A stretch of 64,000 bases of DNA. It comes from Patescibacteria group bacterium (GTDB lineage: Bacteria > Patescibacteriota > Minisyncoccia > UBA6257 > 2-01-FULL-56-20). Made by a program: the position numbers and the translations under genes. The notes beneath the pieces were generated by a model, which saw only the letters and a program-made list of their open reading frames with translations, had not been told where the DNA came from and ran no database searches. Shown piece after piece: positions 11,458-62,705 of the stretch (its first letter is position 1; the number at the start of each line of letters is the position of its first letter). Location: assembly GCA_028865305.1 (NCBI GenBank), contig JAGWKM010000003.1, positions 4,820-68,819 of the forward strand, read 5' to 3'.

Positions 11458-13875
11458 ATGCCGAATTCCGAACACCAAAACGATTCCGCCATTCCCACTA
11501 TCCTCGTTGTCCTTGGCGCCACGGGCGACCTGATGGCGAAAAAAATCGTCCCGGCGGTCTTTAATTTGCATGCCAAGAAGGAATTGCCGCCGAAGTTCGA
11601 ATTTGTCGGCGTTTCGCGGCGCGACTGGACGGATGAGGACTTCAGGAAACATGTCCGGGGGATTTTGGATGCGAAAGGCCTGGCATCCGATGTCCGGCGG
11701 ACGCCGGACATCGGATCATTTTTGGACTTGACCTGCTATCATCGGTTGGCTTTCGGCCAACTTGCCGATTATGCGGCGCTCAAGGAAAAACTGGAAAAAA
11801 TCGACGCGCGCTGGGGCGTTTGCACGAACAAGCTTTTTTATCTTTCCGTGCCGCCGCAATTCTACGATGAGATTTTCGAGAATCTGCATCGGAGCCATCT
11901 GACGGACCCGTGTTCGCCGGAAGAAGGGTGGACGCGCGTGATCGTCGAAAAACCGTTCGGCAGCGATGAAAAAACCGCGAAGCAGCTCGATGCCAAGCTC
12001 GCAAAGCTTTTTAAGGAAGAGCAAATTTACCGCATCGACCATTATTTGGCCAAGGAAATGCTGCAGAACATTTTGGCGTTCCGGTTTGAAAATAATCTTT
12101 TTGAAAATGAATGGAATGCGGAATTCATCGAACGCATCAATATCCGGATGTACGAGACAATTGGCGTGGAGGATCGCGGAGCGTTTTACGACGGCGTTGG
12201 CGCCCTGCGGGATGTCGGGCAAAACCATCTGTTGCAGATGCTTGCGCTCGTAACCATGGAGCGGCCTCTCCTTCATCAAGGCCGCGGAGAGCAAGCCGCT
12301 GGATTTGGCGCCGAAGCAGTGCGGGCGGCCCGTGCCGATATTTTGGAGCGGCTTGAAATTCCGACGCTGAAGCAGGCCGCCGACCGGTCGTTCCGGGCGC
12401 AGTATGACGGCTTTCAGCTGATTAAAGGTGTCGCTCCGGATTCCCAAACCGAAACCTATTTTAAGATCCTCGGTTTTCTGGACCATCCGCGCTGGGCCGG
12501 CGTGCCGATCTATATGGAAAGCGGCAAGCGGTTGCGGGAGGACGTGAATGAGATCGAAATCCTGCTTGGAGGCGGAAAAAATAAAGTGATTATCCAGATT
12601 GAACCGACGGAAAGCATCACGGTGGTTTTTTGTTCAAAAAAGCCGGGGCACGGATTCGAAACGGAAGAGCGCCGGCTGACATTTGATTTTCGCGAGGGTA
12701 AACCGCGGCCGCAATATACGGAAGAATACGAAAAGCTGATTCTGGATTGCATCGCCGGCGACCAGACGCTCTTCGTGTCGAGCCGCGAAATTGCCGCCAT
12801 GTGGAGGTTTACGGATCCGTTCAGCAAGGCGTGGAACAGGGAACAAGAGACGGGGAAAAGGGAAGTTACAGCCCTAAACCATTATCGACCCAATTCTGAT
12901 GAAATAATCATAAAAGCAGAAGAAAAGTTGAATTCCCTGTCCCTTGTCTCATGTTCCCTGTCTCTCGCCCTCATCGGCCTCGGCAAGATGGGCGCGAATC
13001 TTGCGCGGAACTTGCGCGAGCACGGCTGGCATGTCGTCGTATATAACCGCACCCCGGAGAAAACCGCAGAATTGGAAAAAGAAGGTTTCGAAGGCGCGCG
13101 GAGTCTGGAGGAGTTGGTCCGAAAGGTATCCCATTCTCCATTCTCCATTCCCCATTCTCCTCGGATGTTTTGGCTCATGGTGACCGCCGGCAAACCTGTC
13201 GACGACCTATTATCCAATCTCATGCCGTTGCTCAAGAGAGGCGATATCGTGATCGACGGCGGGAATTCGTTCTTTGAAGATTCCATGCGCCGCGCGAAAC
13301 TGCTCGAGAAAAAGGGCATAAAATTCCTTGATGCCGGCGTTTCCGGCGGGCCATCGGGTGCACGGAACGGCGCCTGCATGATGATCGGCGGCGACCGCGA
13401 GGCATTCGGAAAATTAGAGCCGCTCTTCCGCGACGGCTCGGTTCCGGGCGGCTATGCCTATTTCGGCAATGCTGGCGCGGGCCATTTCGTTAAAATGGTC
13501 CACAACGGCATCGAATATGGCATGATGCAGTCAATCGCGGAAGGGTTCGCGCTCATGAAGAAATCTCCGTTCAAATTGGACCTTGCACAGGTTGCGCGCA
13601 TTTATCAACATCAAAGCGTCATTGAATCGCGCCTCGTTGGCTGGCTCGAGAGCGGGTTCAAGGAGTTCGGTCAGGACTTGAAAAAAGTCTCCGGCACGGT
13701 GAATGCGACCGGCGAAGGCGAGTGGACCATAAAAACCGGCAAAAAATGGGGAATGAAACTCGCCGTGATCGAGGACGCTTTCAAATTTCGCATGAAATCA
13801 AAAAAGTCGCCGAGTTATATCGGTAAGATTTTATCGGCGTTAAGGAACCAGTTCGGCGGCCACTCCATAAAATAA
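11458..13875 (+). CDS. zwf: Fused glucose-6-phosphate dehydrogenase / 6-phosphogluconate dehydrogenase (short Gnd type)
   Basis: N-terminal half has LGATGDLMAKKIVPA, EKPFGSD and RIDHYLAKEMLQNILAFRFEN (G6PD). The C-terminal ~300 aa has LIGLGKMGANLARNL, VIDGGNS, LDAGVSGGPSGARNGACMMIGG and GAGHFVKMVHNGIEYGMMQ (6PGDH). One uninterrupted 805-aa ORF. Confidence 0.85.
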   Translation: MPNSEHQNDSAIPTILVVLGATGDLMAKKIVPAVFNLHAKKELPPKFEFVGVSRRDWTDEDFRKHVRGILDAKGLASDVRRTPDIGSFLDLTCYHRLAFGQLADYAALKEKLEKIDARWGVCTNKLFYLSVPPQFYDEIFENLHRSHLTDPCSPEEGWTRVIVEKPFGSDEKTAKQLDAKLAKLFKEEQIYRIDHYLAKEMLQNILAFRFENNLFENEWNAEFIERINIRMYETIGVEDRGAFYDGVGALRDVGQNHLLQMLALVTMERPLLHQGRGEQAAGFGAEAVRAARADILERLEIPTLKQAADRSFRAQYDGFQLIKGVAPDSQTETYFKILGFLDHPRWAGVPIYMESGKRLREDVNEIEILLGGGKNKVIIQIEPTESITVVFCSKKPGHGFETEERRLTFDFREGKPRPQYTEEYEKLILDCIAGDQTLFVSSREIAAMWRFTDPFSKAWNREQETGKREVTALNHYRPNSDEIIIKAEEKLNSLSLVSCSLSLALIGLGKMGANLARNLREHGWHVVVYNRTPEKTAELEKEGFEGARSLEELVRKVSHSPFSIPHSPRMFWLMVTAGKPVDDLLSNLMPLLKRGDIVIDGGNSFFEDSMRRAKLLEKKGIKFLDAGVSGGPSGARNGACMMIGGDREAFGKLEPLFRDGSVPGGYAYFGNAGAGHFVKMVHNGIEYGMMQSIAEGFALMKKSPFKLDLAQVARIYQHQSVIESRLVGWLESGFKEFGQDLKKVSGTVNATGEGEWTIKTGKKWGMKLAVIEDAFKFRMKSKKSPSYIGKILSALRNQFGGHSIK
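12934..12968. repeat. Heptad-periodic array (TCCCTGT-like x5) forming the zwf-gnd linker
   Basis: tccctgt cccttgt ctcatgt tccctgt ctctcgc read directly. Encodes SLSLVSCSLSLA. Confidence 0.8.
13129..13162. repeat. CTCCATT-family heptad array in frame inside the gnd half
   Basis: tcccattctccattctccattccccattctcctc encodes SHSPFSIPHSP. Confidence 0.9.
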
Positions 13876-13879
13876 AAAG

Positions 13880-13899
13880 GCGCCGCGGAGATGCGGCGC
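13880..13899. terminator. Bidirectional hairpin GCGCCGC-GGAGAT-GCGGCGC between convergent genes
   Basis: A-tract upstream on the plus strand, so a T-tract on the minus strand. Sits between the zwf-gnd stop and the minus-strand Zn-ribbon gene stop. Confidence 0.6.
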
Positions 13900-13912
13900 A
13901 GAGAAGCCGGGA

Positions 13913-14161
13913 TTAATCATCGGGCTCGGGGTCGTATGCTGTCTTGATCAGGTTCCAGTCCTGGGGAACCTGGCCAGCATTGGCCATGGCAGCCCTGCAG
14001 TTCGGGCAGTCGGGCGGAGTCGCTTCGGTCGGTTCGCGCATCAAAAAGATATGGCGCCGGCAGGAACTGCAATTCACCATGACCATGCCGACGGTGCTTT
14101 CGTATCCTTGCGCTACCCACACGGCTGCAGTAGGCGGCGGCCCTGCGAATTCAGTGATCAT
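13913..14161 (-). CDS. Small zinc-ribbon protein (82 aa)
   Basis: CSSC...CPNC cysteine pairs, followed on the minus strand by a hairpin and T-tract. No family recognised. Confidence 0.5.
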   Translation of the reverse strand: MITEFAGPPPTAAVWVAQGYESTVGMVMVNCSSCRRHIFLMREPTEATPPDCPNCRAAMANAGQVPQDWNLIKTAYDPEPDD

Positions 14162-14209: not shown

Positions 14210-15634
14210 ATGGAACATAGGCATAAAAAAATCGCAATCCTCGGTTTCGGCAAAGAAGGATATTCGGCGCTCCGGTTTTTGCGGCGCGAACCGCGGTACC
14301 GGCATTCTGATATTTGGATCCTTGATAAGAATGAAAATATAAAGCTGCCCCGCGGCGTTTTTTCACAGCTCGGAGAACATTATCGGGAAGGCCTGGATCG
14401 CTTCGACCTCGTCATCCGTTCGCCGGGGATCTGTTATAAAGCATCAAACGCGACCAGTCCGACCAGAATCTTTTTCGAACATTGCCCGGCGCCGATCATC
14501 GGCGTGACGGGGACGAAGGGAAAGGGAACGACGTCAACGTTGATATATAAGATTCTGAGGGAATGGAGAATGGAGAATGGAGAATGGAATAAAGTTTTTC
14601 TCGTGGGGAATATCGGGAAACCGGCACTGGATATCCTGCCGAAATTGGATAAGAAATCAATTGTTGTCTATGAAATGTCGAGCTTCCAATTGGTCGACTT
14701 GAGACAGAGCCCGCATATCGCGGTGGCGCTCATGATCACTTCGGAACACCTTGATTGGCATAAGAACGTCAAAGAATATCGCGACGCGAAATCGAATATC
14801 GTGAGATACCAGCAAGCAAAAGATTTCGCAGTGTTGGCGCAGGATTATCCAGCAAGCCGGGCTTTCGCAAAATTGACTAAGACAAGCATTTTTTCATTCA
14901 CCCGAAGCGCTGCGCTAAAAAAGGATTATATCCGACGATCGTCCAATCTAATCCTTCGGGGCGCATGGGTTGAGGACGGCTGGTTCTACTTTTCGGATGG
15001 AAAAAAGAAGGAGAAAATTTGCGCGACGGCGGATCTGCAGATACCCGGCGAGCACAACTGGGAAAACGTCGGCGCGGCAATCACGGTGGCGAAGATTCTA
15101 AAAGTGCCGAACGGGGTCATTGCGGAAACGATCCGCAGGTTCAAAGGATTAGAGCACCGGCTCGAATTTGTCGCAAAAAAAGACGGAATCCGCTTCTACA
15201 ATGATTCATATTCCACGACGCCGGAAACGGCGATTGCCGCAATCAGAGCATTCAAGGAACCGAAAATCCTGATCCTCGGCGGTTCATCAAAGGGCAGTGA
15301 TTTCAGGGAATTGGGAGAGGTCATTTCGAAATCGGGCAGCATCCGGGGAATCATCGGGATCGGTGTCGAATGGAAAAGGATAAAGGAGGCAATTCCGACG
15401 CGAAGGCGGAAGGCCATTTCCGCAGATAGAATTTCGTCGCAGGCCGCCGGCCATGAATCAGCGATCCCGGTCGTCGAGAACTGCAAAACCATGAATCAGA
15501 TCGTCCGGGCCGCAAGAAAGCTCGCAAAACCGGGCGATGTAGTCCTCTTGTCGCCGGGTTGCGCCTCGTTCGGAATGTTTAAGAATTACAGCGACCGCGG
15601 CGTGCAGTTCAAGCGAGAGGTGAATGGTGTATAA
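14210..15634 (+). CDS. murD: UDP-N-acetylmuramoylalanine--D-glutamate ligase
   Basis: KIAILGFGKEGYS, GVTGTKGKGTTSTL, GLEHRLEFV and SPGCASFGMFKNYSDRG are classic MurD/Mur-ligase motifs. Confidence 0.9.
   Translation: MEHRHKKIAILGFGKEGYSALRFLRREPRYRHSDIWILDKNENIKLPRGVFSQLGEHYREGLDRFDLVIRSPGICYKASNATSPTRIFFEHCPAPIIGVTGTKGKGTTSTLIYKILREWRMENGEWNKVFLVGNIGKPALDILPKLDKKSIVVYEMSSFQLVDLRQSPHIAVALMITSEHLDWHKNVKEYRDAKSNIVRYQQAKDFAVLAQDYPASRAFAKLTKTSIFSFTRSAALKKDYIRRSSNLILRGAWVEDGWFYFSDGKKKEKICATADLQIPGEHNWENVGAAITVAKILKVPNGVIAETIRRFKGLEHRLEFVAKKDGIRFYNDSYSTTPETAIAAIRAFKEPKILILGGSSKGSDFRELGEVISKSGSIRGIIGIGVEWKRIKEAIPTRRRKAISADRISSQAAGHESAIPVVENCKTMNQIVRAARKLAKPGDVVLLSPGCASFGMFKNYSDRGVQFKREVNGV
14557..14590. 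repeat. GAGAATG-family heptad array in frame inside murD
   Basis: gagggaatggagaatggagaatggagaatggaat encodes REWRMENGEWNK just after the P-loop region. Confidence 0.9.
14921..14956. repeat. Family-C palindrome copy 1 (imperfect), in frame inside murD
   Basis: aaggattatatccgacgatcgtccaatctaatcctt encodes KDYIRRSSNLIL. It is related to the copies at 34854 and 57573. Confidence 0.75.
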
Positions 15635-15711
15635 TGAGAAAAATGGAAAATGTATAATGGAGAATGTGTAATGGGTTGACCCATTCTACATTCTTCGTTA
15701 TACATTCTACT
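15621..15711. repeat. Heptad-periodic hairpin element (purine arm / GGGTTGACCC centre / pyrimidine arm) between murD and gap
   Basis: tgaatggtgtataatgagaaaaatggaaaatgtataatggagaatgtgtaatgggtt | gacccattctacattcttcgttatacattctac. Contains the murD stop codon (TAA 15632-15634). Confidence 0.85.
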
Positions 15712-15721
15712 TGATTATCAA

Positions 15722-19791: not shown

Positions 19792-20019
19792 CGCCGCTCC
19801 AAGCCGAGCTTGACCGGATTTGTCAGGCAACCGACCAGAAATGGCCGGTTTATTTTTTATTACATTCATCCGGAAATTGAGTATCAGGACCGGCGGGATT
19901 GCCGAATAATCCGGCTCTTTTTGCACATGCGGCTTTCTCCTTCTGGGGCGGGGTATGTTATTATTTTATGAACGGAGGAGCTGGGTTTTTTCGTAATGAA
20001 TTGGGCATTTATACGCAGC

Positions 20020-20135
20020 AGAATGGAGAATGCATAACCCTCTCCATTCTCCATTCTCCATTCTCCATTCTCCATTCTCCATTCTCCATTCTCCATTCTC
20101 CATTCTCCATTCTCCATTCTCCATTCTCCATTCTC
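20020..20135. repeat. Tandem array (CTCCATT)x13 with a short complementary GAATGGAGAATG arm upstream
   Basis: 13 exact units counted from 20042 to 20132. Ends 19 nt before the rpiB ATG. Confidence 0.95.
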
Positions 20136-21123: not shown

Positions 21124-21240
21124 GACGGAGAACGGAGCATAGAGAATGGGGTATAGCATAGGTTGCCCATTCTCCATTCTTCGATCTCCATTCTCCGTTA
21201 TTCATTCTCCATTCTCCATTCTCCATTGCCCATTCTGCCT
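21124..21240. repeat. Heptad-periodic hairpin element in the divergent intergenic region
   Basis: gacggagaacggagcatagagaatgggg...ttgcccattctccattcttcgatctccattctccgttattcattctccattctccattctccattgcccattctgcc. Confidence 0.85.
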
Positions 21241-22303: not shown

Positions 22304-22304
22304 C

Positions 22305-22368: not shown

Positions 22369-23954
22369 TTTACGTAGAACACGCTGCTGCTCGGCGTGCC
22401 TTTCGGAATTTCACCGGTCTCGTCAGGCAGAAGATAGGTGATATGGCGCGCCAGTTGCGTTGACGTAGTGAACGAATCGGTCACGAACATCACGGTTTCC
22501 GCCGGCACCGGAATGCCGCGCGCGATGACGCCGCCCGCTTCGACAACTACGTATTTCGGCTCACCCAGCGGCAAGGCGTTGATTTGGTTCCCGATCGCAA
22601 CGTAATCTGCGTTGAAAGCTCCCGGCACGTTTGAATTTTCGGCCCAGACGACGAAGTAATCATAGTAGGCATAAATCGCAACGGCCGCCAAAAAAACAGC
22701 CGCAATCACCGGAGGGAGCCATTGAAGACGATCTTTAAAAAAGACGGCCCTTAAGGATCGATACGCCCAAATGCCGCCGATGGCGGCAAAGATCACGGTT
22801 GGCGGCAGCATGAGAATCGACCGGAGCGCGTGCGGGATGCCTTCGTCCGACGCGGCGGCGGGAAGGAGCGCAAGGAGGAACCAGGAGAGGAGAAGCGAAG
22901 TGACAAATGACAAATGACTCATGACAAACGAACGCCTTGATTTCCAAAGCTGATAAATGCTCCAGATGATTCCGGTTATAAATAATATTCCCACGGGCCA
23001 CCAGAGTTCCGGCGCGCTCGCGATGTTCTGCCGCCAATTGTTGTCGCCGCGGACATTCAGCATAAGCAAAGTTTTCGCGACATTTGTCATGAAGTCGCCG
23101 ATCGGATTTTTCGCGTTGGTAACCGCAATTTGCGACGTCCTGCCGAAGAAATCACCGGGATGCTGGAGGAAGTAGACGCCGATCGGCAGGGCTATGATGA
23201 AAGCGGCGAAACAGAATAAAAGCATTTTTTTCCAAAAGCCCGGCGTTTTCCGGAAGAACGGGATGAAAAGCAAAAAGAGCAGGGGAGTGATGCGGTAGGC
23301 GATGTAGGTGTAAAAACCGAGGCCGTAGATGATGCCGGCGGAGATGATACAGAGCATGGAGAATGGAGAATGGAGAATGGAATATTCCCCGTTCAGTCCT
23401 CCGTCCTCCGTCCTCCGTCCTCGGAGCCCCTTCAGCAAAAAATACACTGCCCAAACGAGGCAAAGCGGCGCCAAAATTGCCCGGAATCCGATCCTCGAAA
23501 AAATGATATGCCAAAAACTGGTTGCGAGGAGAAAAGCGGAGAGGAGGGCAAGCACAGGACCCGGAAATTCGAACCCGGAGAATGGAATGCTGCCGGCTTC
23601 CGTTTCCGGGCTTCCGCTTTCCCTTTTTTTAAATAACTCCGCAACCAGGAAATACATTCCGAACACCGTGAGTATTCCCGCAATCGCCGCCGGCAGGCGG
23701 ACGACCCACGGCTCATGCCCGAACCATTTGATGAAAAAGACCAATATGTTCACGTAAAGCCCTTCCCGGCCGTTGTCCTCGACATAGAACGGCTGGAACG
23801 AAGCGGTGCCGTGGACGATTTCGAGCGCATTGTTGCCGTCCATCGCCTCGTCCGGATAAAGTCCCGGAGGTGTCGCCGTGATGTGATATAATCGAAGGAA
23901 GGCGGCAAATACAAGGATACCGACGAGCAGCAGAACTTTAATGCCGGTGCGCAT
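22365..23954 (-). CDS. Family-39 glycosyltransferase (ArnT/PMT-like)
   Basis: RLYHITATPPGLYPDEAMDGNNALEI N-terminal loop motif and more than 10 TM segments. Confidence 0.8.
   Translation of the reverse strand: MRTGIKVLLLVGILVFAAFLRLYHITATPPGLYPDEAMDGNNALEIVHGTASFQPFYVEDNGREGLYVNILVFFIKWFGHEPWVVRLPAAIAGILTVFGMYFLVAELFKKRESGSPETEAGSIPFSGFEFPGPVLALLSAFLLATSFWHIIFSRIGFRAILAPLCLVWAVYFLLKGLRGRRTEDGGLNGEYSILHSPFSMLCIISAGIIYGLGFYTYIAYRITPLLFLLFIPFFRKTPGFWKKMLLFCFAAFIIALPIGVYFLQHPGDFFGRTSQIAVTNAKNPIGDFMTNVAKTLLMLNVRGDNNWRQNIASAPELWWPVGILFITGIIWSIYQLWKSRRSFVMSHLSFVTSLLLSWFLLALLPAAASDEGIPHALRSILMLPPTVIFAAIGGIWAYRSLRAVFFKDRLQWLPPVIAAVFLAAVAIYAYYDYFVVWAENSNVPGAFNADYVAIGNQINALPLGEPKYVVVEAGGVIARGIPVPAETVMFVTDSFTTSTQLARHITYLLPDETGEIPKGTPSSSVFYVK
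22900..22930. repeat. CATTTGT-family heptads in frame inside the GT39 gene
   Basis: gtgacaaatgacaaatgactcatgacaaacg. The coding strand gives SFVMSHLSFVTS. Confidence 0.8.
23355..23423. repeat. Two adjacent heptad arrays (GAGAATG x3-4, then GTCCTCC x4) in frame inside the GT39 gene
   Basis: catggagaatggagaatggagaatggaatat ... gtcctccgtcctccgtcctccgtcctcg. The coding strand gives RRTEDGGLNGEYSILHSPFSM. Confidence 0.9.
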
Positions 23955-23980
23955 AGTACCAGTATAGCATCTATAAAATT

Positions 23981-24128
23981 ACTAATATCTAATTAATAAT
24001 TAATAACGAATGTCCAAGGTTAAATTTCCAACGGACATTCGGTCATTATCCATTCGTTATTAATTATTAATTAGAAATTTCCCCAACAATCCATTCGTTA
24101 TTAATTAGATATTATTAATTAGAAATTT
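23981..24128 (+). repeat. Family-A AT-rich palindromic element, copy A1 (full length)
   Basis: 22-bp perfect inverted repeat AATTAATAATTAATAACGAATG (23991-24012) / CATTCGTTATTAATTATTAATT (24051-24072) with a 38-nt loop. A third arm follows after AGAAATTTCCCCAACAATC. Confidence 0.9.
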
Positions 24129-24566: not shown

Positions 24567-24600
24567 CATTTGTCATTTGTCATTTGTCATTTGTCATTTG
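24567..24600. repeat. Tandem (CATTTGT)x~5 immediately upstream of pilC
   Basis: catttgtcatttgtcatttgtcatttgtcatttg ends 7 nt before ATG 24608. Confidence 0.9.
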
Positions 24601-25734: not shown

Positions 25735-25885
25735 GATTAATAATATCTAATTAATAACGAATGGATTGTTGGGGAAATTTCTAATTAATAATTAATAATT
25801 AATAACGAACGCCTAATGCTCGAATGTCCATCAGACATTTCTCCTTGGATATTCGTTTTAATTATTAATTAGACATTATTAATTT
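25735..25885 (-). repeat. Family-A element, copy A2 (inverted relative to A1)
   Basis: ttaataatatctaattaataacgaatggattgttggggaaatttctaattaataattaataattaataacgaa...attcgttttaattattaattag. The head is the reverse complement of the A1 tail. Confidence 0.88.
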
Positions 25886-25948
25886 CAAACCTCGATCCCG
25901 GCCTGCCTGCCGGACAGGCATGCTCGGAGACCGGGATGACAGAATAAT

Positions 25949-32461: not shown

Positions 32462-32638
32462 GACGTAATAGGATAGCGAGGTGGACGCCGCTAACGACGG
32501 CTTGGCTGGATGGGGGAATGTAAAAAGGCCCGGCGACATAACGCCCGGCGAAGTAAGGTGGCACCGCGGTCCGAACGCCAGATCGCCCTTACAAAGTCAT
32601 CGAGTCGAGGTGATTTTGTAAGGGCGTTTTGTTTTCTA
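32462..32638 (+). promoter_or_regulatory. T-box riboswitch leader of aspS with terminator
   Basis: T-box sequence AAGTAAGGTGGCACCGCGG (32551-32569). Terminator GCCCTTACAAA...TTTGTAAGGGC plus GTTTTGTTTT (32585-32634). GAC triplets at 32484 and 32496 are specifier candidates. Confidence 0.75.
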
Positions 32639-32722
32639 GTAGAATGTAGAAAGTAGAAGGTAGAAAGGTAGTCTGCTCATTCTCCATCTTCCATTCTCCA
32701 TCTTCCATTCTCCATCCTACTT
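32638..32722. repeat. Heptad-periodic hairpin element between the T-box terminator and the aspS start
   Basis: tagaatgtagaaagtagaaggtagaaaggtagtctgctcattctccatcttccattctccatcttccattctccatcctac. Confidence 0.85.
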
Positions 32723-32733: not shown

Positions 32734-34146
32734 ATGCAACGAACTCACATTGCGGATATAATTAAAGAAGAAGGCAAGACGGTGACTCTCGCCGGCTGGG
32801 TGCATGCGCGGCGCGACCACGGCAAACTGGTTTTCATCGACTTGCGCGACCGGAGCGGCATCGTGCAGGTGGTTTTCGGGCCGGATGTCGCCGGTGCTTC
32901 GGAGCTGCGGTTGGAATATGTCATCAAAGTGAAGGGCGAAGTGAAAAAGCGGCCGCCGTCGATGGTGAATGACAAGATCCCGACCGGCGCCTTCGAGATC
33001 GGCGCGACGGAATTGGAAATCCTGAACCGGTCCGGTGAAATGCCGATCCCGGTCGATACCGACGGCTTCGACATCAACGAAGAGCGGCGGCTGCAGTATC
33101 GCTATCTCGACCTGCGCCGCGAACGGTTAAAAAACAACATCATCGCGCGGCACAAGGTCATCAAATTCATCCGTGATTTCTTGGCGGAGCGCGGCTTTAT
33201 TGAAATCGAAACGCCGAACCTTTCAAAATCGACGCCCGAAGGCGCGCGCGATTACCTCGTGCCGTCGCGCATCCAAAAAGGGAATTTTTATGCCTTGCCG
33301 CAATCGCCGCAGCAGTATAAGCAGCTTTTGATGGTGGCCGGGCTCGAAAAATATTTCCAAATTGCGCGTTGTTTCCGCGATGAGGACACGCGCGGCGACC
33401 GCCAGCCGGAATTCACCCAGCTCGATTTCGAGATGAGCTTCGTTGCGCGCGAAGACGTGATGGCGCTGAACGAGGAACTTTTGATCGCTATCGTCAAAAC
33501 GTTATATCCGCAGAAAAAAATCCAGGAAATCCCGTTCCCGCGCATCAGCTATGCGGAAGCGATGCAAAAATACGGCACCGACCGGCCGGACATGCGGAAA
33601 GATAAAAATGATCCGGATTTATTGGCATTTTGCTGGGTCATCGATTTCCCGTTTTTTGAAAAAGTGAAAGCGGATGCCGCGCACTCCGAAGCCTCGGCGC
33701 AGGAGTGGACGTTTACCCACAATCCGTTTTCGGCACCCAAACCGGAATTTATGGCGGATTTGCTTGCAAAGAAAAATATCCCGGACATTCTGACGACGCA
33801 GTACGATGTCGCGATGAACGGTTTGGAAGTCGGCGGCGGCAGCATCCGCAACCATCAGCCGGAAGCGCTCGAAGCGGTGTTCGAAATTATGGGTTTCAAA
33901 AAAGAGCGGATCTATGCGAACTTCGGCCACATGCTCGAGGCCTTGAGTTTCGGCGCGCCGCCGCACGGCGGGATTGCGTGGGGGCTCGACCGTTTGGTAT
34001 CATTACTGCAAAACGAGCCGAACATCCGCGAGGTGATCGCGTTCCCGAAGACTGGCGACGGCCGCGACCCGATGATGGGTTCGCCCGCAGAGGTCGAGGA
34101 GAAACAATTGAAGGAGTTGGGCATCGAAATAAAAAAGAAATCGTAG
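32734..34146 (+). CDS. aspS: Aspartate--tRNA ligase, short form lacking the GAD insertion
   Basis: OB-fold start GWVHARRDHGKLVFIDLRDRSG, motif 2 FQIARCFRDEDTRGDRQPEFTQLD and motif 3 GGGSIRNH...GIAWGLDRL. Only 470 aa. Confidence 0.92.
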   Translation: MQRTHIADIIKEEGKTVTLAGWVHARRDHGKLVFIDLRDRSGIVQVVFGPDVAGASELRLEYVIKVKGEVKKRPPSMVNDKIPTGAFEIGATELEILNRSGEMPIPVDTDGFDINEERRLQYRYLDLRRERLKNNIIARHKVIKFIRDFLAERGFIEIETPNLSKSTPEGARDYLVPSRIQKGNFYALPQSPQQYKQLLMVAGLEKYFQIARCFRDEDTRGDRQPEFTQLDFEMSFVAREDVMALNEELLIAIVKTLYPQKKIQEIPFPRISYAEAMQKYGTDRPDMRKDKNDPDLLAFCWVIDFPFFEKVKADAAHSEASAQEWTFTHNPFSAPKPEFMADLLAKKNIPDILTTQYDVAMNGLEVGGGSIRNHQPEALEAVFEIMGFKKERIYANFGHMLEALSFGAPPHGGIAWGLDRLVSLLQNEPNIREVIAFPKTGDGRDPMMGSPAEVEEKQLKELGIEIKKKS

Positions 34147-39289: not shown

Positions 39290-39290
39290 T

Positions 39291-40119: not shown

Positions 40120-40128
40120 TGTGAATGA

Positions 40129-40214: not shown

Positions 40215-40233
40215 ACATTAGCCATTTCAAAAA

Positions 40234-44540: not shown

Positions 44541-44637
44541 GGGGAAGAAGAAGGAATACAGAAGGAAGAAGGAATATTTCAAATTCTATATTCTCGATTC
44601 CATTCCTTATTCTTTTTTCCTCGTTCTTTCTTCTTTT
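44541..44637. repeat. GAAGGAA / TTCCTTC heptad-periodic hairpin upstream of uvrA
   Basis: ggggaagaagaaggaatacagaaggaagaaggaatatttcaaattctatattctcgattccattccttattcttttttcctcgttctttcttctttt. Confidence 0.75.
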
Positions 44638-44645: not shown

Positions 44646-47201
44646 ATGCGCGATAAAATTACAATCAAAGGGGCGCGAGAGCACAATCTAAAGAACGTTA
44701 ATCTCGAGATTCCGCGCGATAAAATGGTCGTTTTCACGGGGCTTTCGGGCTCGGGCAAATCGAGCTTGGCTTTTGATACGATCTTCGCGGAGGGCCAGCG
44801 GCGGTATATCGAGTCGCTTTCGGCGTACGCGCGGCAGTTTTTGGGTCGGCTCGACAAGCCGGACGTGGATGACATTGAAGGGCTGTCGCCCGCGATTTCG
44901 ATCGACCAGAAATCGCATTCGGCGAACCCGCGTTCGACCGTCGCGACCATCACGGAAATTTACGATTATCTCCGCGTGCTCTTCGCGCGCGCCGGCAAGC
45001 CATTCTGCCCGCGTTGCGGCCGGGAGATCAAAAAGATGACGAACGAGGAGATCGTCGATATTGCGATCGATATTTCCGAGGAGAATGGAGGACGGAGAAT
45101 GGAGAGTGGATTGGTTTCCAAGAAAACGCTTGGTAAAAATCTGCTGATCCTTGCGCCGGTCGTCCGCGGGCGAAAAGGGGAGTATTACCAGATGCTCTAT
45201 GATTTCCTGAATGCCGGGTTCAGCGAGGTGCGCATCGACGGCAAATTCCATTCGTTGCGCGACCGGGTTGAATTGAGCCGCTACAAATCGCACGACATTG
45301 ACCTCGTGATCGACCGCATGCCGGCCGGGATGAATTTCAAAGACAAGGACAACCGCCTGCGCCTCGCTGAAGCGATCGAGTCGGGCATCAAGTACGGCAA
45401 CGATGTCGTGACAATCATCACCGACAAGGAAGTTTCGCTTTCGGCAAAGTTCACCTGCCCGCACGACGGTTTTTCATTCCCCGAAATCGAGCCGCGCCTG
45501 TTTTCGTTCAATAGTCCCTACGGCGCGTGCCCGGAATGCCATGGTTTGGGCGTGAAAGATATTTGGTCGGATGAGATATGCCCGGTCTGCGAAGGCAAGC
45601 GTTTGCGCGAAGAGAGTCTGAATGTGCTCGTCAACGATAAAAGCATCGTGATGGTGACGGCGCTTTCCATCGAGCGGGCGTATGAGTTTTTCAGCAAGAT
45701 GAAATTCGCGACGGCATCGATGGCGGAGGTCGCGGAAACGCCTCTCCGCGAGATCAAGAGCCGGCTGAAGTTCATGATCGACGTCGGCTTGGAATACCTG
45801 ACGCTCGACCGCAAGGCCGGAACGCTTTCCGGCGGCGAGGCGCAGCGCATCCGGCTGGCGTCGCAAATCGGTTCGCGGCTTGTCGGCACGCTCTATATTT
45901 TGGATGAACCGACGATCGGCCTCCATCAGCGCGACAATTTGAAACTGATCCAGACCTTGCAGGAGCTGCGCGATTTGGGGAACACGATCGTGGTCGTTGA
46001 GCACGATGAAGACACGATCCGCGCGTCGGATTATTTGGTCGACGTCGGGCCCGGAGCCGGCGTGCATGGCGGCAGGATCGTGGCGGCCGGGCCGGTGCCG
46101 GAAATTTTGAAAGATTCGAAGCAGGACTCGCTTACCTTGCAATATCTGCGCGGCAAGAAATTCATCGAGGTGCCCGATGAGCGTCGCAAAATCGATTCGA
46201 AGCGCGAGCACCTGAAGATCCGCGGCGCGCACGCGAACAACCTGAAAAATATAAACGTAGATATTCCGCTCCGGCGTTTTACGGCCGTGACTGGCGTCTC
46301 GGGCAGCGGCAAGTCATCGCTCGTGTACGATGTGCTCTATGAAGCCGTGGCGGCGAAATTAAACCGAACGAAAGCGCCCCCCGCGAAAGCATCTTCCATC
46401 CTCGGCCTGGAATATATTAACCGCATCATAAACATCGACCAGGCCGCGATCGGCCGCACGCCGCGCTCAAATCCGGCGACGTACGTCGGCGCCTGGACGC
46501 ACATCCGCGACCTTTTCGCCTCAACCGAAGACGCCCGCGTGCGCGGCTACAAGCCCGGCCGGTTCAGCTTCAACGTGCCCGGCGGCCGCTGTGAAAACTG
46601 CGAAGGCCACGGCACGATCGCGATTGAGATGCACTTCCTGCCGACCGTCTACGTCACCTGCGATATCTGTAAGGGCAAGCGCTTCGACCGCGAGACGCTC
46701 GAAGTCGAATACAAGGGGAAAAATATCTACGACATTTTACGGATGACGATCGAGGAAGCCGTGAAGTTCTTCGAAGACATCCCGTGGCTCTATGAAAAAC
46801 TCACCATCTTGGAAGAGGTTGGCTTGGGCTATCTTGAACTTGGCCAATCAGCCACGACGCTCTCCGGCGGCGAAGCCCAGCGCATCAAGCTCTCGGCCGA
46901 ACTCGGCAAGCGCGACACGCGCCGCACGTTGTATTTATTGGACGAGCCAACCACCGGCCTCCATTTCGCCGACATCGACCAGCTCATCAAAGTCCTGCAA
47001 CGTTTAGTTGATCGCGGTAACACCGTCGTCGTGATTGAACACAATTTAGACGTGATAAAAACCGCCGACTGGGTAATTGATTTAGGCCCCGAAGGCGGCG
47101 AGCGAGGAGGCCAGATAATAGCCACGGGAACCCCCGAAGAAATAGCAAGGAAGAAAGGCAGTTTCACAGGGGAATACCTAAGGAAAACATTACAGAAGTA
47201 A
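44646..47201 (+). CDS. uvrA: Excinuclease ABC subunit A (short, 851 aa)
   Basis: [35 protein letters not shown], the Zn modules CPRCG / CPECHG / CENCEG...CDICKG, and two ABC signatures LSGGEAQRI. Confidence 0.93.
45078..45110. repeat. GAGAATG-family heptads in frame inside uvrA
   Basis: gaggagaatggaggacggagaatggagagtgga encodes [11 protein letters not shown]. Confidence 0.85.
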
Positions 47202-49703: not shown

Positions 49704-50966
49704 GTGAAACGCAAGGATTACAAAAAACTGCCGGAGACGCCGGGCGTTTATCTCATGAAAGATACCGGCGGCAAAATCCTCTATGTCGGCAAAGCGGGCA
49801 ACCTGCGCCGGCGGGTTTCAAGCTATTTTGAACGGCCCCATGACGTGCGGATCGAGAAACTGGTAAGCAAGATAGCGAGCATCGATTTTGAAGAAACCGA
49901 TTCGACCCTTGAAGCCCTGATCCGCGAAGCCCGGCTCATCCGCGAACTCACACCGCCCTTCAACGTGAAGGAAAAAGACGATAAGAGTTTTTTATACATC
50001 GAGATCACGAAGGAAAAATTTCCCCGCGTGCTTTTGGCGCGCGGGCATGATGTAGGAACAGGAAACAGGAAACCGGGAACAGGGAACCTATTTGGGCCGT
50101 TTACCTCGGCAACGGGCGCGCGAGAGGCATTGCGGATTTTAAGGAGAATTTTCCCGTGGAGCACGCACGAAACCGAAGGGAAAAGCGGAAAGAAAAAAGA
50201 AAAAAGGGCGTGCTTCGATTACGAACTCGGTCTTTGCCCCGGAACCTGCATCGGCGCCATCAGCGAGCGGGAGTATAAAAAGAACATTGCCCATCTGAAG
50301 CTCTTCCTCGAGGGCAAGAAAAAAAAGCTGATCGCCGCGCTCGAAAAAGAAATGGCGGCGGCGGCCAAAACTATGGAATTCGAAAAAGCGGCAAAACTGC
50401 GCGGCCAGGTTTTTGCGTTGAAGCACATAAGAGATACGGCACTGATGGGGAAAGAGGAGAATGGAGAATGGAGGACGGAAAATGGAACAAGGTTTCGCAT
50501 CGAGGGCTACGACATATCGAATATTTCCGGCACTGCAGCCGTGGGGTCGATGGTGGTTTTCGAAAATGACCAGCCGGATAAAAATGAATACAGGAAGTTC
50601 AAAATAAAAACGGTATTCCAACCCAACGATGTCGGTATGCTCACGGAAATGCTTGAGCGGCGTTTTCGCCATTCTCCCGTTCTCCGTTCTCCGTTCTCCA
50701 TTTTGCACCCATGGCCTCTCCCCGGCCTCATCCTCATCGACGGCGGTTTGGCGCAGGTGAATGCGGCAAACAAAGTGCTGCTCCGCGCCGGGCTGAAAAT
50801 ACCGGTCGTCGGTATCGCGAAAGGCCCGGAACGGAAGCGGAACGACATCATCGGCCTCGTGCCGAAGGGCGTAAAAAAGGAAACACTGATCCGGGTGCGG
50901 AACGAGGCGCACAGGTTCGCGATCAGTTATCACAAAAAATTGAGAGGCGTAAACGCGCTGCATTGA
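49704..50966 (+). CDS. uvrC: Excinuclease ABC subunit C, short form without the C-terminal (HhH)2
   Basis: GIY-YIG PGVYLMKDTGGKILYVGKAGNLRRRV, UVR motif MEFEKAAKLRGQVFAL, and endonuclease part IEGYDISNISG ... RVRNEAHRFAISYH. GTG 49704 chosen because TTG 49629 lies inside the upstream terminator. Confidence 0.88.
   Translation: MKRKDYKKLPETPGVYLMKDTGGKILYVGKAGNLRRRVSSYFERPHDVRIEKLVSKIASIDFEETDSTLEALIREARLIRELTPPFNVKEKDDKSFLYIEITKEKFPRVLLARGHDVGTGNRKPGTGNLFGPFTSATGAREALRILRRIFPWSTHETEGKSGKKKEKRACFDYELGLCPGTCIGAISEREYKKNIAHLKLFLEGKKKKLIAALEKEMAAAAKTMEFEKAAKLRGQVFALKHIRDTALMGKEENGEWRTENGTRFRIEGYDISNISGTAAVGSMVVFENDQPDKNEYRKFKIKTVFQPNDVGMLTEMLERRFRHSPVLRSPFSILHPWPLPGLILIDGGLAQVNAANKVLLRAGLKIPVVGIAKGPERKRNDIIGLVPKGVKKETLIRVRNEAHRFAISYHKKLRGVNALH
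50054..50087. repeat. GGAACAG-family heptads in frame inside uvrC
   Basis: aggaacaggaaacaggaaaccgggaacagggaacc encodes GTGNRKPGTGN. Confidence 0.85.
50454..50488. repeat. GAGAATG-family purine array in frame inside uvrC
   Basis: gaggagaatggagaatggaggacggaaaatggaac encodes [11 protein letters not shown]. Confidence 0.85.
50668..50703. repeat. Complementary pyrimidine array in frame inside uvrC
   Basis: gccattctcccgttctccgttctccgttctccattt encodes HSPVLRSPFSIL. Roughly complementary to the 50454 array ~180 nt upstream. Confidence 0.85.
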
Positions 50967-53812: not shown

Positions 53813-53853
53813 CCTTTCTGTCATGCTGATGCTCTGCCGAAGAATCTTATCTG

Positions 53854-53998
53854 AAATTTCTAATATCTAATTAATAATTAATAACGAATGTCTAAAGTTA
53901 AATTTCCAACGGACATTTGGCATTACACATTCGTTATTAATTAGTCATTATTAATTAGATATTTCCCCAACAACACATTCGTTATTAATTAGAAATTT
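53854..53998 (+). repeat. Family-A element, copy A4 (full length)
   Basis: gaaatttctaatatctaattaataattaataacgaatg...cattcgttattaattag...atttccccaacaacacattcgttattaattagaaattt. Confidence 0.9.
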
Positions 53999-54040: not shown

Positions 54041-54763
54041 ATGAAAAATATTATTGATTGCAAAAACATCCAAAAGACTTACGGCGCAGGCGACACGGCG
54101 ACCGTGGTCCTGAAGGGCGTAACGTTCTCCGTAAAGGAGGGGGAGTTTGTGGCGATCATGGGGCCGTCCGGTTCCGGCAAATCAACGTTGATGCACATCA
54201 TCGGCTGTCTCGATACGCCGACCGGCGGGGAATATTTGATTGACGGCAGGGATGTTTCCAAGTTAAGCGATGACGAACTTGCCGATATCCGTCGCGAGAA
54301 GATCGGTTTCGTCTTCCAGGCGTTTAATCTTTTGCCGCGAACGACTGTCCTGCGGAATGTTTCGTTGCCGCTCATTTATGAAGGTGTCGAGAAAACGAAA
54401 CGCGAAGGGATTGCCGAAAGGGCATTGGCCGATTCCGCTTTTCCGCAGAAATTTTGGTACCACCATTCAAACCAGCTTAGCGGCGGTATGATGCAGCGCG
54501 TGGCGATCGCCCGGTCGCTCGTCAATAATCCGGCGCTCATTTTGGCGGACGAGCCGACCGGCAACCTGGATTCAAAGACCGGCGAGACCGTCCTCGGTAC
54601 GTTCCAAAACCTGAATGAGAAGCAAGGCAAGACGATCGTCTTGATCACCCATGAGCGCTATGTCGCCGAACACGCCGACCGGATCATCCATATTTTAGAC
54701 GGGAAGATCGTGCAGGAGGAGTCGAATGGCGTGCACCAGAGGAAAGCGACAATCAATGTCTAA
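54041..54763 (+). CDS. MacB/LolD-type ABC transporter ATP-binding protein
   Basis: GPSGSGKSTLMHIIG, LSGGMMQRVAIARSL and LILADEPTGNLD. Confidence 0.9.
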   Translation: MKNIIDCKNIQKTYGAGDTATVVLKGVTFSVKEGEFVAIMGPSGSGKSTLMHIIGCLDTPTGGEYLIDGRDVSKLSDDELADIRREKIGFVFQAFNLLPRTTVLRNVSLPLIYEGVEKTKREGIAERALADSAFPQKFWYHHSNQLSGGMMQRVAIARSLVNNPALILADEPTGNLDSKTGETVLGTFQNLNEKQGKTIVLITHERYVAEHADRIIHILDGKIVQEESNGVHQRKATINV

Positions 54764-54906
54764 TGTCTAATTAATAATTAATAACGAATGTGTAAAGTTA
54801 AATTTCCAACGGACATTCGGACATTATCCATTCGTTATTAATTATTAATTAGATATTTCCCCAACAATCCATTCGTTATTAATTAGGCATTATTAATTAG
54901 AAATTA
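54758..54906 (+). repeat. Family-A element, copy A5 (full length; overlaps the ATPase stop codon)
   Basis: gtctaatgtctaattaataattaataacgaatg...cattcgttattaattattaattag...atttccccaacaatccattcgttattaattaggcattattaattag. Confidence 0.9.
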
Positions 54907-56154: not shown

Positions 56155-56234
56155 AATGTTCCTGGCATCCCGAACTTGCTGCATCCGCCATGGCTTTAGC
56201 GAGGGCGGAGCCCGGGATCTAGAGCGTTCACATG

Positions 56235-56388
56235 ACTAATTAATAATATCTAATTAATAACGAATGCATTGTTGGGGAAATTTCTAATTAATAATATCTA
56301 ATTAATAACGAATGAATAATGTTCGAATGTCCGTTGGAAATTTAACCTTGGACATTCGTTATTAATTATTAATTAGATATTAGAAATT
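56235..56388 (-). repeat. Family-A element, copy A6 (inverted relative to A4/A5)
   Basis: ctaattaataatatctaattaataacgaatgcattgttggggaaatttctaattaataatatctaattaataacgaatg...cattcgttattaattattaattag. Confidence 0.9.
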
Positions 56389-56417
56389 ACAAAAGGTCGT
56401 CGATACAGAAACAAATT

Positions 56418-61538: not shown

Positions 61539-61576
61539 AAAAAATCGGATGCTCCCTTTGGATATCCGAAATTTTT
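61539..61576. terminator. Bidirectional hairpin downstream of rpmA
   Basis: AAAAAA-TCGGAT...ATCCGA-AATTTTT, 2 nt from the rpmA stop. Confidence 0.6.
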
Positions 61577-61577
61577 C

Positions 61578-61853
61578 TTACGCCATCACGCTGACTACCG
61601 TTGCCCTTCTTGGCGAGCCGTCGAATTTTGTCTTGGTTTTTGACGAAAACTTTACAATGCCATTCTTGCCGGCGTAGAGTGTGTCGTCGCCCGCGCGGAT
61701 GACATTCGCGCCCGGCAGGTATTTCGTGCCGCGCTGACGGAGGATAATCTGGCCGACGAGCGCCTTCTGGCCGTCATTGATCTTGACGCCAAGGCGCTTT
61801 GCGATGGAATCGCGGCCTAATTTTGTTGAACCGATAGCTTTAGTATGGGCCAT
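61578..61853 (-). CDS. rpmA: 50S ribosomal protein L27
   Basis: MAHTKAIGSTKLGRDSIAKRLGVK...GQIILRQRGTKYLPGANV is the bL27 signature. Start set at MAHTK. Confidence 0.92.
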   Translation of the reverse strand: MAHTKAIGSTKLGRDSIAKRLGVKINDGQKALVGQIILRQRGTKYLPGANVIRAGDDTLYAGKNGIVKFSSKTKTKFDGSPRRATVVSVMA

Positions 61854-61856
61854 TGC

Positions 61857-61923
61857 GGGGAGAATGAAGAATGAAGAACGAAAAATGGGTAAACCATTCT
61901 GCCTTCTCCAATCTACTTTCTGC
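61857..61923. repeat. Heptad-periodic hairpin element immediately upstream of rpmA (minus strand)
   Basis: ggggagaatgaagaatgaagaacgaaaaatgggtaaaccattctgccttctccaatctactttctgc. Confidence 0.85.
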
Positions 61924-61952
61924 AATAATGAACCAGTCAATTCTATGCTACA

Positions 61953-62705
61953 ATGACCTCAATGTCAACTACGAACAAGCTTATTTTGGACATAGAAACC
62001 ATCGGCGAAGATTTCGATTCCCTGGACCAGGCGACCCGGGAAAACCTGACCCGGTGGATCAAAAAAGATTCGGAAAACGAAGATGAATACCAGCGGGCGC
62101 TTAAAGACCTGAAGGACGGGCTCGGTTTTTCGCCGTTGACGGGCGAGATCGTCGCGATCGGCGTGCTCGATTTCCATAAAAACGAAGGCGGCGTCTATTA
62201 TCAAGCGCCCGGACAGAAAAGTGATAGGGAGCAAGGAACAGGGAACAAGGAGTTGAAAGAAAACGGGATTATTTTCAAAGCAATGACCGAGGAGGAAATG
62301 CTTCGGAAATTTTGGGAGCTTGCGGCGCGGTACCAGGTTTTCATCACGTTCAATGGCCGCGCGTTTGACGTGCCATTTTTAATGGTCCGTTCCGCGATCC
62401 ACGGCATCCGGCCGACGAAAGACCTCATGCGCGGCCGGTATTTATATCAAAACAATCCGGAGGCGCTTCATATTGATCTTGCCGAGCAATTAAGCTTTTA
62501 TGGCGCCGTCCGCCGGAAGGGAAGCCTGCATCTCTGGTCGCGCGCGTTCGGCATAGAAAGCCCAAAGTCCGGAGGCGTGACCGGAGATGATGTAGGCCCG
62601 ATGTTCAAGAAGAAAAAGTTTCTGGAAATAGCAAAGTACAATGTGGGCGATCTGCGGGCGACGAGAGAATTGTATGCAAAGTGGGAGCAATATCTATCAT
62701 TTTGA
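61953..62705 (+). CDS. RNase H-like 3'-5' exonuclease (PolB-exonuclease-related family)
   Basis: LILDIETIG (Exo I), FITFNGRAFDVPFL (Exo II) and YNVGDLRATRELY (Exo III-like). Confidence 0.7.
   Translation: MTSMSTTNKLILDIETIGEDFDSLDQATRENLTRWIKKDSENEDEYQRALKDLKDGLGFSPLTGEIVAIGVLDFHKNEGGVYYQAPGQKSDREQGTGNKELKENGIIFKAMTEEEMLRKFWELAARYQVFITFNGRAFDVPFLMVRSAIHGIRPTKDLMRGRYLYQNNPEALHIDLAEQLSFYGAVRRKGSLHLWSRAFGIESPKSGGVTGDDVGPMFKKKKFLEIAKYNVGDLRATRELYAKWEQYLSF
62225..62252. repeat. GGAACAG-family heptads in frame inside the exonuclease gene
   Basis: atagggagcaaggaacagggaacaaggag encodes DREQGTGNKE. Confidence 0.8.

Follow-up and report, generated by a model that had tools for sequence, protein, structure and literature searches.

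One expects genes to be purged of repeats whose unit length is not a multiple of three, or to use them as on/off switches. Among the tandem 7-nt repeats of bacteria are the short tandemly repeated repetitive (STRR) sequences of cyanobacteria, reportedly described by Mazel et al. in 1990. STRR sequences are cited in PMC4692102 and PMC2858038, and the work of Mrazek (2007), as summarised in PMC4679880, presents heptanucleotide repeats as the most abundant class of long simple sequence repeats (SSRs) in most prokaryotic genomes, with a polymerase-slippage hypothesis and a proposed 7-nt polymerase-contact length. In Xanthomonas and Nostoc, heptamers favour ~4 units and non-coding sites near the ends of open reading frames (ORFs; PMC4692102). 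Here, we present an analysis of tandem 7-nt repeats (heptad arrays) in a 64-kb stretch of a Paceibacterota/Patescibacteria metagenome-assembled genome (contig JAGWKM010000003.1 of assembly GCA_028865305.1, positions 4,820 to 68,819; GC ~53%), hereafter the window, in which genes for enzymes of repair, the cell wall and central metabolism of a bacterium with a minimal genome carry such a repeat in frame. The repeat is of a known kind, and what is new here is its frequent, recurrent in-frame occupation of housekeeping-protein loops in Patescibacteria, together with polar hairpins in gene leaders. Within the literature library searched, no paper was found that deals with heptamer repeats of Patescibacteria or with the unit GAGAATG.

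Period-7 arrays in the window

The genes of the window are ordinary bacterial genes according to Pfam scans, its UvrC matches a protein from a Patescibacteria metagenome-assembled genome at 100% identity, and the relatives of this UvrC at 64-71% identity belong to Paceibacterota/Minisyncoccia. Arrays were detected with Tandem Repeats Finder and with our own lag-7 scan, which gave 30 to 47 arrays depending on the scoring. At a score of >=10, the 30 period-7 arrays compare with 0.1 in composition-matched shuffles and with 0-4 arrays for each of the periods 4-6 and 8-13, period 14 being a harmonic of 7, while laxer scoring gave 47 arrays of period 7 against 0-7 for these other periods. The period-7 feature is real, strongly non-random and general. 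Its arrays span 2.4-13.6 tandem head-to-tail copies of the unit, blocks of close to 4 units are typical both inside and outside coding sequence, and the favoured units are GGAGAAT, GGAGGAC, GGAACAG and their relatives. Allowing for up to two mismatches, GGAGAATGGAGAATGG has 49 matches at at least 17 loci of the window, where 0.08 are expected, and the composite variant GGAG[G/T]ACGGAGAATGG is common to uvrA, uvrC and an ABC gene. This one unit family builds both the coding arrays and the intergenic hairpins, as had been proposed.

When counted with refined gene starts, 20 arrays lie in 11.3 kb of non-coding DNA (1.77 per kb) and 10 in 52.7 kb of coding DNA (0.19 per kb), a ~9-fold difference in density that marks the coding copies as a tolerated minority. 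The long arrays at 20041-20135, 21167-21236 and 61861-61882 are situated in 5' leaders, outside coding sequence. The original prediction, made from the letters of the window alone, had named ten sites in conserved genes; all ten are present and in frame in ORFs, Pfam agrees with the hosts that it named (G6PD + 6PGD fusion, Mur ligase, PMT_2, UvrA, UvrC and PolB-like exonuclease), and the sites encode ENGEWRM-type or HSPFSIL-type peptides, as its MENGEW and SILHSPF readings implied. For the site at 12934-12968 the array itself was found, but its description needed correction, as it is a degenerate array of the GGAACAG family that pairs, as the 3' arm, with the inverted array at 12828-12864. Arrays that had been missed are located at 38833-38859 (tail of an ABC ATPase) and 10236-10278 (membrane-anchored protein), in addition to a weak fourth uvrC site at 50176-50206.

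Arrays inside protein-coding genes

Since 7 and 3 have no common factor, all three frames of one strand of an array give one cyclic heptapeptide: GAGAATG is read as ENGEWRM and its complement as HSPFSIL, and both orientations occur in genes. The earlier statements on stop-free units were correct for every unit listed, including CATTTGT, which is open only in the orientation used in the gene for a family 39 glycosyltransferase (GT39). The proposal that this neutrality towards reading frames is a special adaptation fails against the base rate, for 50% of all heptamers (55% at the GC of the window) are stop-free on both strands, so that the property acts as a filter and is not a design. Units that do bear stops were found only outside genes or in a stop-free orientation, and TAATTAA, GTAGAAT and AATGTCT are exclusively intergenic.

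Alignment with orthologues showed all coding arrays that were tested to be lineage-specific insertions in conserved proteins. In murD, GAGAATG x4 on the plus strand (14557-14590; peptide REWRMENGEWN) adds 6 aa relative to 3lk7, directly after the P-loop helix. The plus-strand CCATTCT array in gnd (13129-13162; SHSPFSIPHSP) contains an 8-aa insert, HSPFSIPH, which is unique to the window and absent from 12 of 12 fusion orthologues as well as from 4e21 and 8ihe. In the PolB-like exonuclease gene, a GGAACAG-family array (62225-62252, plus strand; DREQGTGN) corresponds to an insert of exactly 8 aa against two orthologues. The GGAGAAT/GGAGGAC array of uvrA (45078-45110, plus strand) encodes an 11-residue peptide within a loop that is 17 aa longer than in 2r6f and ranges from ~4 to >40 aa among 58 orthologues of Patescibacteria (candidate phyla radiation, CPR); at this very loop, the uvrA gene of locus L072 has a different heptad array. 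The net coding inserts of 18, 24, 24, 24 and ~39 nt are multiples of 3 but not of 21, which contradicts the idea of clean 21-nt triplets and rules out a clean insertion of 3n units. As a separate observation, the UvrA of the window (44646-47201) is without the ~105-residue insertion domain of Geobacillus UvrA (query residue 313 aligns with chain residue 313, and query residue 307 with chain residue 419).

The three arrays of uvrC, all on the plus strand, fall exactly in three linkers that are variable in length among 30 Paceibacterota UvrC proteins, and in an AlphaFold model (mean pLDDT, the per-residue confidence score, 64.8; moderate confidence) they are placed in coil between secondary-structure elements. 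Linker 1 (50054-50087) has a GGAACAG-family array encoding VGTGNRKPGTGN, and linker 2 (50454-50488), the most frequent heptad-array site in other CPR uvrC genes, has a GGAGAAT/GGAGGAC array encoding an 11-residue peptide; both are predicted coil with a pLDDT <50. The third array (50668-50703; CCGTTCT/CCATTCT; peptide RHSPVLRSPFSIL) lies in a variable loop of the RNase H domain, predicted as coil between a helix and a strand, where the protein is 8 aa longer than 8b0q. In alignments with many relatives, the arrays of uvrC, uvrA and the GT39 gene are all situated in hypervariable loops. Site 1 of the GT39 gene (22900-22930, minus strand; CATTTGT in gene sense; SFVMSHLSFVT) is a hypervariable loop of the family in which relatives have SSMSHVAF or SSLSHVPF. 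Site 2 (23352-23422, minus strand) is an inverted pair, which in mRNA sense consists of GGAGGAC x4, a loop and CATTCTC x4, encodes RGRRTEDGGLNGEYSILHSPFS and folds with z=-4.2 and -3.1; loci L082 and L083 carry other heptad pairs in this loop.

Another inverted pair is found in the zwf-gnd fusion gene (11458-13875), which encodes one 805-aa protein. Its purine 5' arm, of the GGAACAG family, occupies a C-terminal loop of the Zwf part (12828-12864, plus strand), which has an insert of ~7 aa relative to 12 fusion orthologues, and its pyrimidine arm, of a degenerate CTGTTCC family, occupies the Zwf-Gnd interdomain linker (12933-12969, plus strand; SLSLVSCSLSLA), which is no longer than in the same orthologues. 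The arms are 78% complementary and fold with z=-6.2. They flank 68 nt of conserved coding sequence and thus represent two events and not one inserted hairpin. Fusions of 730-808 aa are found in at least 13 protein clusters (50% identity level). The array as the creator of the fusion is ruled out, as at least 13 cluster representatives are fused without it and the fusion is ancestral.

Further coding arrays are a GGAGTAC/GGAGAAT array in the C-terminal tail of the ABC ATPase (38833-38859, plus strand; NGVRRMENE) and TTGCTGG x6.1 in a low-complexity linker of the membrane-anchored hypothetical protein (10236-10278, minus strand; PATSNQQ x2). A contrasting case, with a coding repeat of the ordinary in-frame type, is the 1118-aa protein at 25-3381, which has six DUF11 repeats, a peptidoglycan-binding domain and, at 2651-2711, a triplet repeat rich in GGC/GGT. 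The nucleoside diphosphate kinase (NDK; 34223-34807) has an insert of ~45 aa between profile positions 56 and 57; we looked for a heptad origin of this insert and rejected it, as no periodicity was seen within it.

Leader and intergenic hairpins

Inverted pairs are frequent among the intergenic arrays and fold much better than shuffled sequence does, and their polarity is fixed: the purine arm, often with TAGAAT or TATAAT, lies 5', and the pyrimidine arm, (CATTCTC)n, ends at most ~20 nt from a start codon. This holds at 9-10 genes of the window (GAPDH, rpiB, bPH, T2SS-F, aminoacyl-tRNA synthetase (aaRS), NDK, ABC-2, uvrA and the minus-strand L27 gene). Unrelated metagenome contigs provide seven cases of an ORF start at most 30 nt downstream of an array in the CATTCTC orientation, against one for the GAGAATG orientation. 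Coding pairs read in gene sense are likewise purine first and pyrimidine second, namely at the zwf-gnd junction, at GT39 site 2 (z=-3 to -4) and at sites 2 and 3 of L082 (z=-5.2 and -4.6), and single coding arrays are unstructured.

On the plus strand, the hairpin between murD and GAPDH (15635-15720; z=-6.9) has its purine arm 5' and a pyrimidine arm that ends 12 nt before the ATG. The rpiB leader (20018-20135) consists of a short purine arm followed by TCTCCAT x13.6, ending 18 nt before the ATG at 20154, and its long arm alone is unstructured (minimum free energy 0). Ahead of the bPH_2 gene (21134-21236), a purine arm and a degenerate CCATTCT x10 end 8 nt before the ATG at 21245, and ahead of the T2SS-F gene (24567-24600), CATTTGT x4.9 ends 7 nt before the ATG. 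The aaRS leader (32638-32716) pairs a GTAGAAT arm with a CATCTTC/CATTCTC arm upstream of the ATG at 32734. In the NDK leader (34139-34224; z=-3.0), a purine arm with TAGAAT/TATAAT is followed by a CCATTCT arm that abuts the ATG at 34223; the hairpin of the ABC-2 permease leader (39290-39353; z=-3.4) likewise has a CCATTCT arm abutting the ATG, at 39355, and in the uvrA leader (44547-44636) a degenerate purine arm and a pyrimidine arm lie directly upstream of the ATG at 44646. On the minus strand, the L27 hairpin (61859-61909) has, in gene sense, a 5' purine arm and a pyrimidine arm that ends 5 nt before the ATG, and because a TTGACA-N17-TAGAAT promoter is located upstream of the whole hairpin, the latter lies in the 5' untranslated region.

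We considered the heptad hairpins as intrinsic terminators, but they are without a T-run and this role is unsupported. Upstream of the aaRS element, a true terminator-like hairpin with a T-run is located at 32584-32626, so the heptad element that follows is not the terminator. A Shine-Dalgarno (SD)-like motif is found within 25 nt upstream of 10 of 56 window genes, and a leader role of the arrays is plausible. Fixed hairpin polarity together with the few SD motifs suggests an unstudied leader element. A search of the window against Rfam gave no match.

Several window genes have TATAAT or TAGAAT 6-10 nt before the ATG, a position that suggests leaderless or very short-leader mRNAs, and the repeat unit GTAGAAT/GAGAATG resembles a -10 box plus one base. 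Two genes of the family PF05635 (35474-35881 and 38921-39289; 23S rRNA intervening-sequence protein, Avd-like four-helix bundle) share the upstream block ATTAAATAAC..TTTGCA-N17-CACATGCTATGA. The second of them sits between the purine arm at 38833-38859 and a pyrimidine arm at 39320-39351, as if inserted into the loop of a heptad hairpin; this association of PF05635 genes and heptad arrays was noticed in the window only. The window also contains six copies of an AT-rich palindromic intergenic element (23976-24128, 25774-25889, 40124-40226, 53853-53965, 54755-54906 and 56227-56393) with the arms CTAATTAATAATTAATAACGAATG and CATTCGTTATTAATTATTAATTAG, which is 7-periodic, forms a family distinct from the GAGAATG arrays and has no match in Rfam.

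Arrays in other genomes

For comparison, we used 80 genome loci around uvrC (1.18 Mb) from many CPR lineages, in which period 7 is the commonest repeat period, with 53 arrays against 6-20 for other periods. Array density is patchy: the closest uvrC relatives have nearly none, and the window has ten times the average. The uvrC gene, with 8% of the DNA, holds 20 of the 53 period-7 arrays, mostly at the positions of linkers 1 and 2, as compared to 0, 4 and 3 arrays of periods 6, 9 and 12, and the units of these uvrC arrays are lineage-specific (e.g. AAACTAC, AATTTCC, GAATTAG). For uvrA, there are three arrays in 144 kb, one of them at the loop occupied in the window.

The same periodicity persists in linkers that have no recognisable array. 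In the uvrC linkers of 62 genomes, after the removal of 14 with detectable arrays, identity is 0.302, 0.299 and 0.307 at lags 7, 14 and 21, whereas most of the remaining lags not divisible by 3 give 0.26-0.28 (z=5.8; 0 of 500 codon shuffles reach this value), and the UvrC protein core has no lag-7/14/21 signal. We take the signal in array-free linkers as the trace that decayed arrays have left.

In the closest GT39 relatives, inserts are found in the same four loops of the protein. Three of them, from independent assemblies, contribute 6.3, 16.6 and 14.7 kb of DNA with 12, 11 and 9 period-7 arrays, respectively; 9, 4 and 5 of these arrays are inside the GT39 gene, with the units GGGACAT, GGGACGA/TGTCCCC, AGCGACA/CATGTCG, GAGGCCA and ACTCCGG. 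Repeat units are lineage-specific across 83 other loci, and between species copy number and units differ freely. Exact GAGAATG x4 is present in >120 JGI contigs with a GC of 0.30 to 0.69, and 80 fetched JGI contigs contain 200 period-7 arrays against 2-28 for other periods. In these contigs, GAGAATG x4 was found in frame in triosephosphate isomerase (TIM), DUF4147/MOFRL, amidohydrolase, HypF, fucose pyrophosphorylase and other genes. Among the hosts of GAGAATG, one, L132, was placed as another Paceibacterota; its TIM gene (2746-3564) has a perfect CATTCTC array superimposed on a homologous segment of greater age (ILHSKFYILN or similar), which survives in diverged form in relatives but is missing from two of them, which indicates that arrays can persist and diverge. 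The same TIM has a second insert of 10 aa, PARRSFGTGG, elsewhere in the protein.

Long perfect arrays also occur elsewhere (L081 6133-6253; L083 7038-7093; L085-L164), including AGGGTTT x8, up to 57 units of GAGAATG, and at least 17 units of CATTTGT in an array cut off by the end of its contig. As 27 of 92 GAGAATG arrays lie at metagenome contig ends, these repeats break assemblies. At strain level, exact-protein searches (rpiB, NDK) and flank searches of JGI metagenomes for copy-number differences matched nothing, and only L084 (ENA ERZ27237554, from another sample) was found. It is 100% identical to the window at 61570-62000, over the L27 gene, promoter and leader hairpin. Upstream of the promoter, L084 has an rve-family insertion sequence where the window has the exonuclease gene, a strain-level rearrangement that left the array unchanged; the insertion sequence, present in the population, is unrelated in sequence.

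Origin of the arrays

The reading that we favour, and hold to be rather probable, is that the arrays are STRR-like heptanucleotide repeats, of a type long known from cyanobacteria, Xanthomonas and Beggiatoaceae and unusually dense in this Patescibacteria lineage, that are filtered by selection in genes and decay into linkers. Each genome would favour one or a few related units and have them at many loci as blocks of ~4 units, for which replication slippage or template switching from short matching seeds, together with copying between arrays, would be the most likely routes. GAGAAT-like DNA could encode the ENK/ENG that relatives have at the UvrA site and their SDNE/SENE at uvrC site 2, and such stretches are possible seeds. 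The main home of the arrays would be the 5' leader or intergenic space, where paired arrays would form the hairpins of fixed polarity, and those inside genes would be survivors that are in frame and stop-free in the orientation used. Where survivors can be compared with many orthologues or with a model, they appear to be in length-tolerant loops or interdomain linkers. Coding arrays are presumably translated as ENGEWRM-type or HSPFSIL-type peptides and would decay by point mutation into ordinary-looking hypervariable linker sequence, and heptad arrays may thus be a recurrent raw material for loops and linkers, in uvrC above all.

Several points weigh against this reading. In L084, the single further sample of this strain, the L27 leader array is the same as in the window and provides no copy-number polymorphism; the net inserts (18, 24, 24, 24 and ~39 nt) are not multiples of 21, which simple whole-unit slippage fails to explain; and the peak at ~4 units, coding and non-coding, differs from what plain birth-death slippage predicts. 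One unit at many loci needs dispersal or a sequence-specific step. The occurrence of hairpin polarity also inside genes (zwf-gnd, GT39 site 2, L082 sites 2 and 3) hints at selection at the RNA level, which a purely neutral view ignores, and the translation of the arrays is an assumption. A bolder version, which we regard as possible but doubtful, is that a templated, sequence-specific process (ectopic template switching between arrays, or a dedicated activity) writes ~4-unit blocks of a genome-specific heptamer, often as arm pairs oriented with transcription, in which case the intergenic copies would act as functional SD-independent leader elements and the coding copies would continue, on a major scale, to supply essential proteins with new loops and linkers. 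If this were true, the hypervariable linkers of UvrC and other CPR proteins would to a large extent consist of fossil heptad arrays.

The original prediction had called the arrays MITE-like, and a small mobile palindromic element built from heptads, akin to a miniature inverted-repeat transposable element (MITE), a repetitive extragenic palindrome (REP) or a Rickettsia palindromic element (RPE), could have inserted as a hairpin of which single arrays are half-elements or decayed copies. Such an element would account for the many inverted pairs with fold z of -3 to -7, the pairs at orthologous loops inside genes of two genomes, the dispersal of one unit family across the genome and the threefold recurrence of 24-nt inserts; arrays in the window do lie in frame in unrelated conserved genes, and RPEs prove that in-frame palindromic inserts exist (PMC10969869). 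However, no defined consensus with fixed termini or terminal inverted repeats was found: single arrays have neither, copies share no common ends, length or loop, and arms and loops differ in length and sequence at every locus. The flanks were inspected by eye, and short target-site duplications would be masked by the repeats themselves. The zwf-gnd arms, separated by conserved coding DNA, are not one insertion, most coding arrays are single and unstructured, and the range of 2.4-13.6 units in the window and up to 57 elsewhere is the behaviour of a tandem repeat. The ORFs of the 64-kb window include neither a transposase or REP-associated tyrosine transposase (RAYT) nor a reverse transcriptase. 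On balance, we consider a mobile element unlikely. It is also improbable that the arrays as a whole are functional nucleic-acid elements whose coding copies are selected too, with leader hairpins for mRNA stability or SD-independent translation, -10-like boxes in the purine arm and ribosome pausing between domains. The fixed polarity at 9-10 leaders, the minus-strand gene included, and the ratio of 7 to 1 in unrelated contigs speak for it, as do the pyrimidine arm in the place of the SD motif that only 10 of 56 genes have, the TAGAAT/TATAAT within purine arms, the like polarity of coding pairs and arms that stay complementary though units differ between genomes; TAACTGA heptamers just upstream of start codons have also been proposed as regulator sites (PMC4679880). 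Yet the coding arrays are not conserved between species at ~70% protein identity, have no structure when single, occur in both orientations and are depleted from coding sequence.

Contingency loci are typically surface or restriction genes. That the arrays are such loci, in which the gain or loss of one 7-nt unit shifts the frame and switches uvrA, uvrC, murD and others, for example into a reversible mutator state, agrees with a unit that is inherently out of frame, with the enrichment in uvrC (20 of 53 arrays in 8% of the DNA) and the arrays in uvrA, and with the well-established SSR-driven phase variation of other bacteria (PMC2651432). The hosts, however, include genes expected to be essential (murD, aaRS leader), arrays lie mid-gene in linkers and away from the 5' end, and slippage should be rare at only ~4, often imperfect, units. 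All copies in ~90 genomes are in frame in the assembled sequences, and the three unconstrained linkers of uvrC explain its enrichment, which leaves this explanation highly improbable. An assembly or sequencing artefact can hardly be credited at all: the position of 27 of 92 GAGAATG arrays at contig ends and the breakage of assemblies by long arrays could raise the suspicion, but coding arrays of 28-36 nt are below read length and keep the frame, they recur in independent NCBI, ENA and JGI assemblies, and L084, from the other sample, is identical through one array.

Significance

The same protein loops are recolonised by different heptads in different lineages, and the lag-7/14/21 signal in linkers without a visible repeat offers a concrete explanation, open to testing, of how lineage-specific loop insertions in Patescibacteria proteins arise by mutation. 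The results also bear on the old question of how STRR-type heptamers arise and spread. For the annotation of CPR genomes, the practical consequences are broken assemblies, displaced gene-start predictions and reduced domain-model scores.

Comparison with known systems

Coding repeats of the type known from Borgs reportedly have unit lengths divisible by 3. Like the Borg tandem repeats, which are fast-evolving, locally born and add disordered segments to proteins (PMC9879509), the arrays of the window contribute protein sequence, but their 7-nt unit yields a peptide that repeats every 7 aa (21 nt), and a change by a single unit breaks the frame. The RPEs of Rickettsia (Ogata et al. 2000), as they are described in PMC10969869, are in-frame repeat DNA in unrelated conserved genes that can be accommodated in the fold of the protein and gives a peptide characteristic of the family, in all of which the arrays resemble them; the difference is that RPEs are 100-150 bp long with a defined consensus, whereas the arrays are tandem 7-mers without fixed length or ends. 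The TAACTGA repeats of marine Beggiatoaceae, cyanobacteria and Bacteroidetes (PMC4679880) form heptamer arrays of 2-6 copies a few nt upstream of start codons and have a patchy phylogeny with one unit across unrelated phyla, as GAGAATG likewise occurs in contigs with a GC of 0.30-0.69. In contrast to the units of the window, TAACTGA repeats hold stop codons and are essentially intergenic, and neither paired-arm hairpins nor in-frame coding copies are described for them.

The GGGAATC and GGGGA(C/T)T repeats of Xanthomonas and Nostoc (PMC4692102) share with the arrays a genome-wide dispersal, blocks of ~4 units and a non-coding excess near ORF ends with a minority in genes, and the units GGGACAT, GGGACGA, AGGGTTT and GGGATTT of the window lineage are also G3N4. 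The dominant GGAGAAT, by contrast, has GG tracts only, several window units are without G runs, and coding inserts were not analysed in PMC4692102. By inspection, at least four G3 tracts per array, as a G-quadruplex needs, are found only for minor units (GGGATTT, TGGGACA) and units of relatives, with none in CATTTGT, GTAGAAT and TAATTAA, so that G-quadruplexes cannot be a general explanation. The closest match is with STRR and the long SSRs, with which the window shares tandem 7-nt copies, few families per genome dispersed over many loci with genome-specific units, a mostly intergenic position with a non-coding excess near gene ends, and tolerance inside functional genes (for STRR, RNase P RNA). 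What sets the window apart from STRR is another phylum and other units, copies that are often, as we presume, translated in frame inside housekeeping proteins, and inverted pairs of fixed polarity beside start codons.

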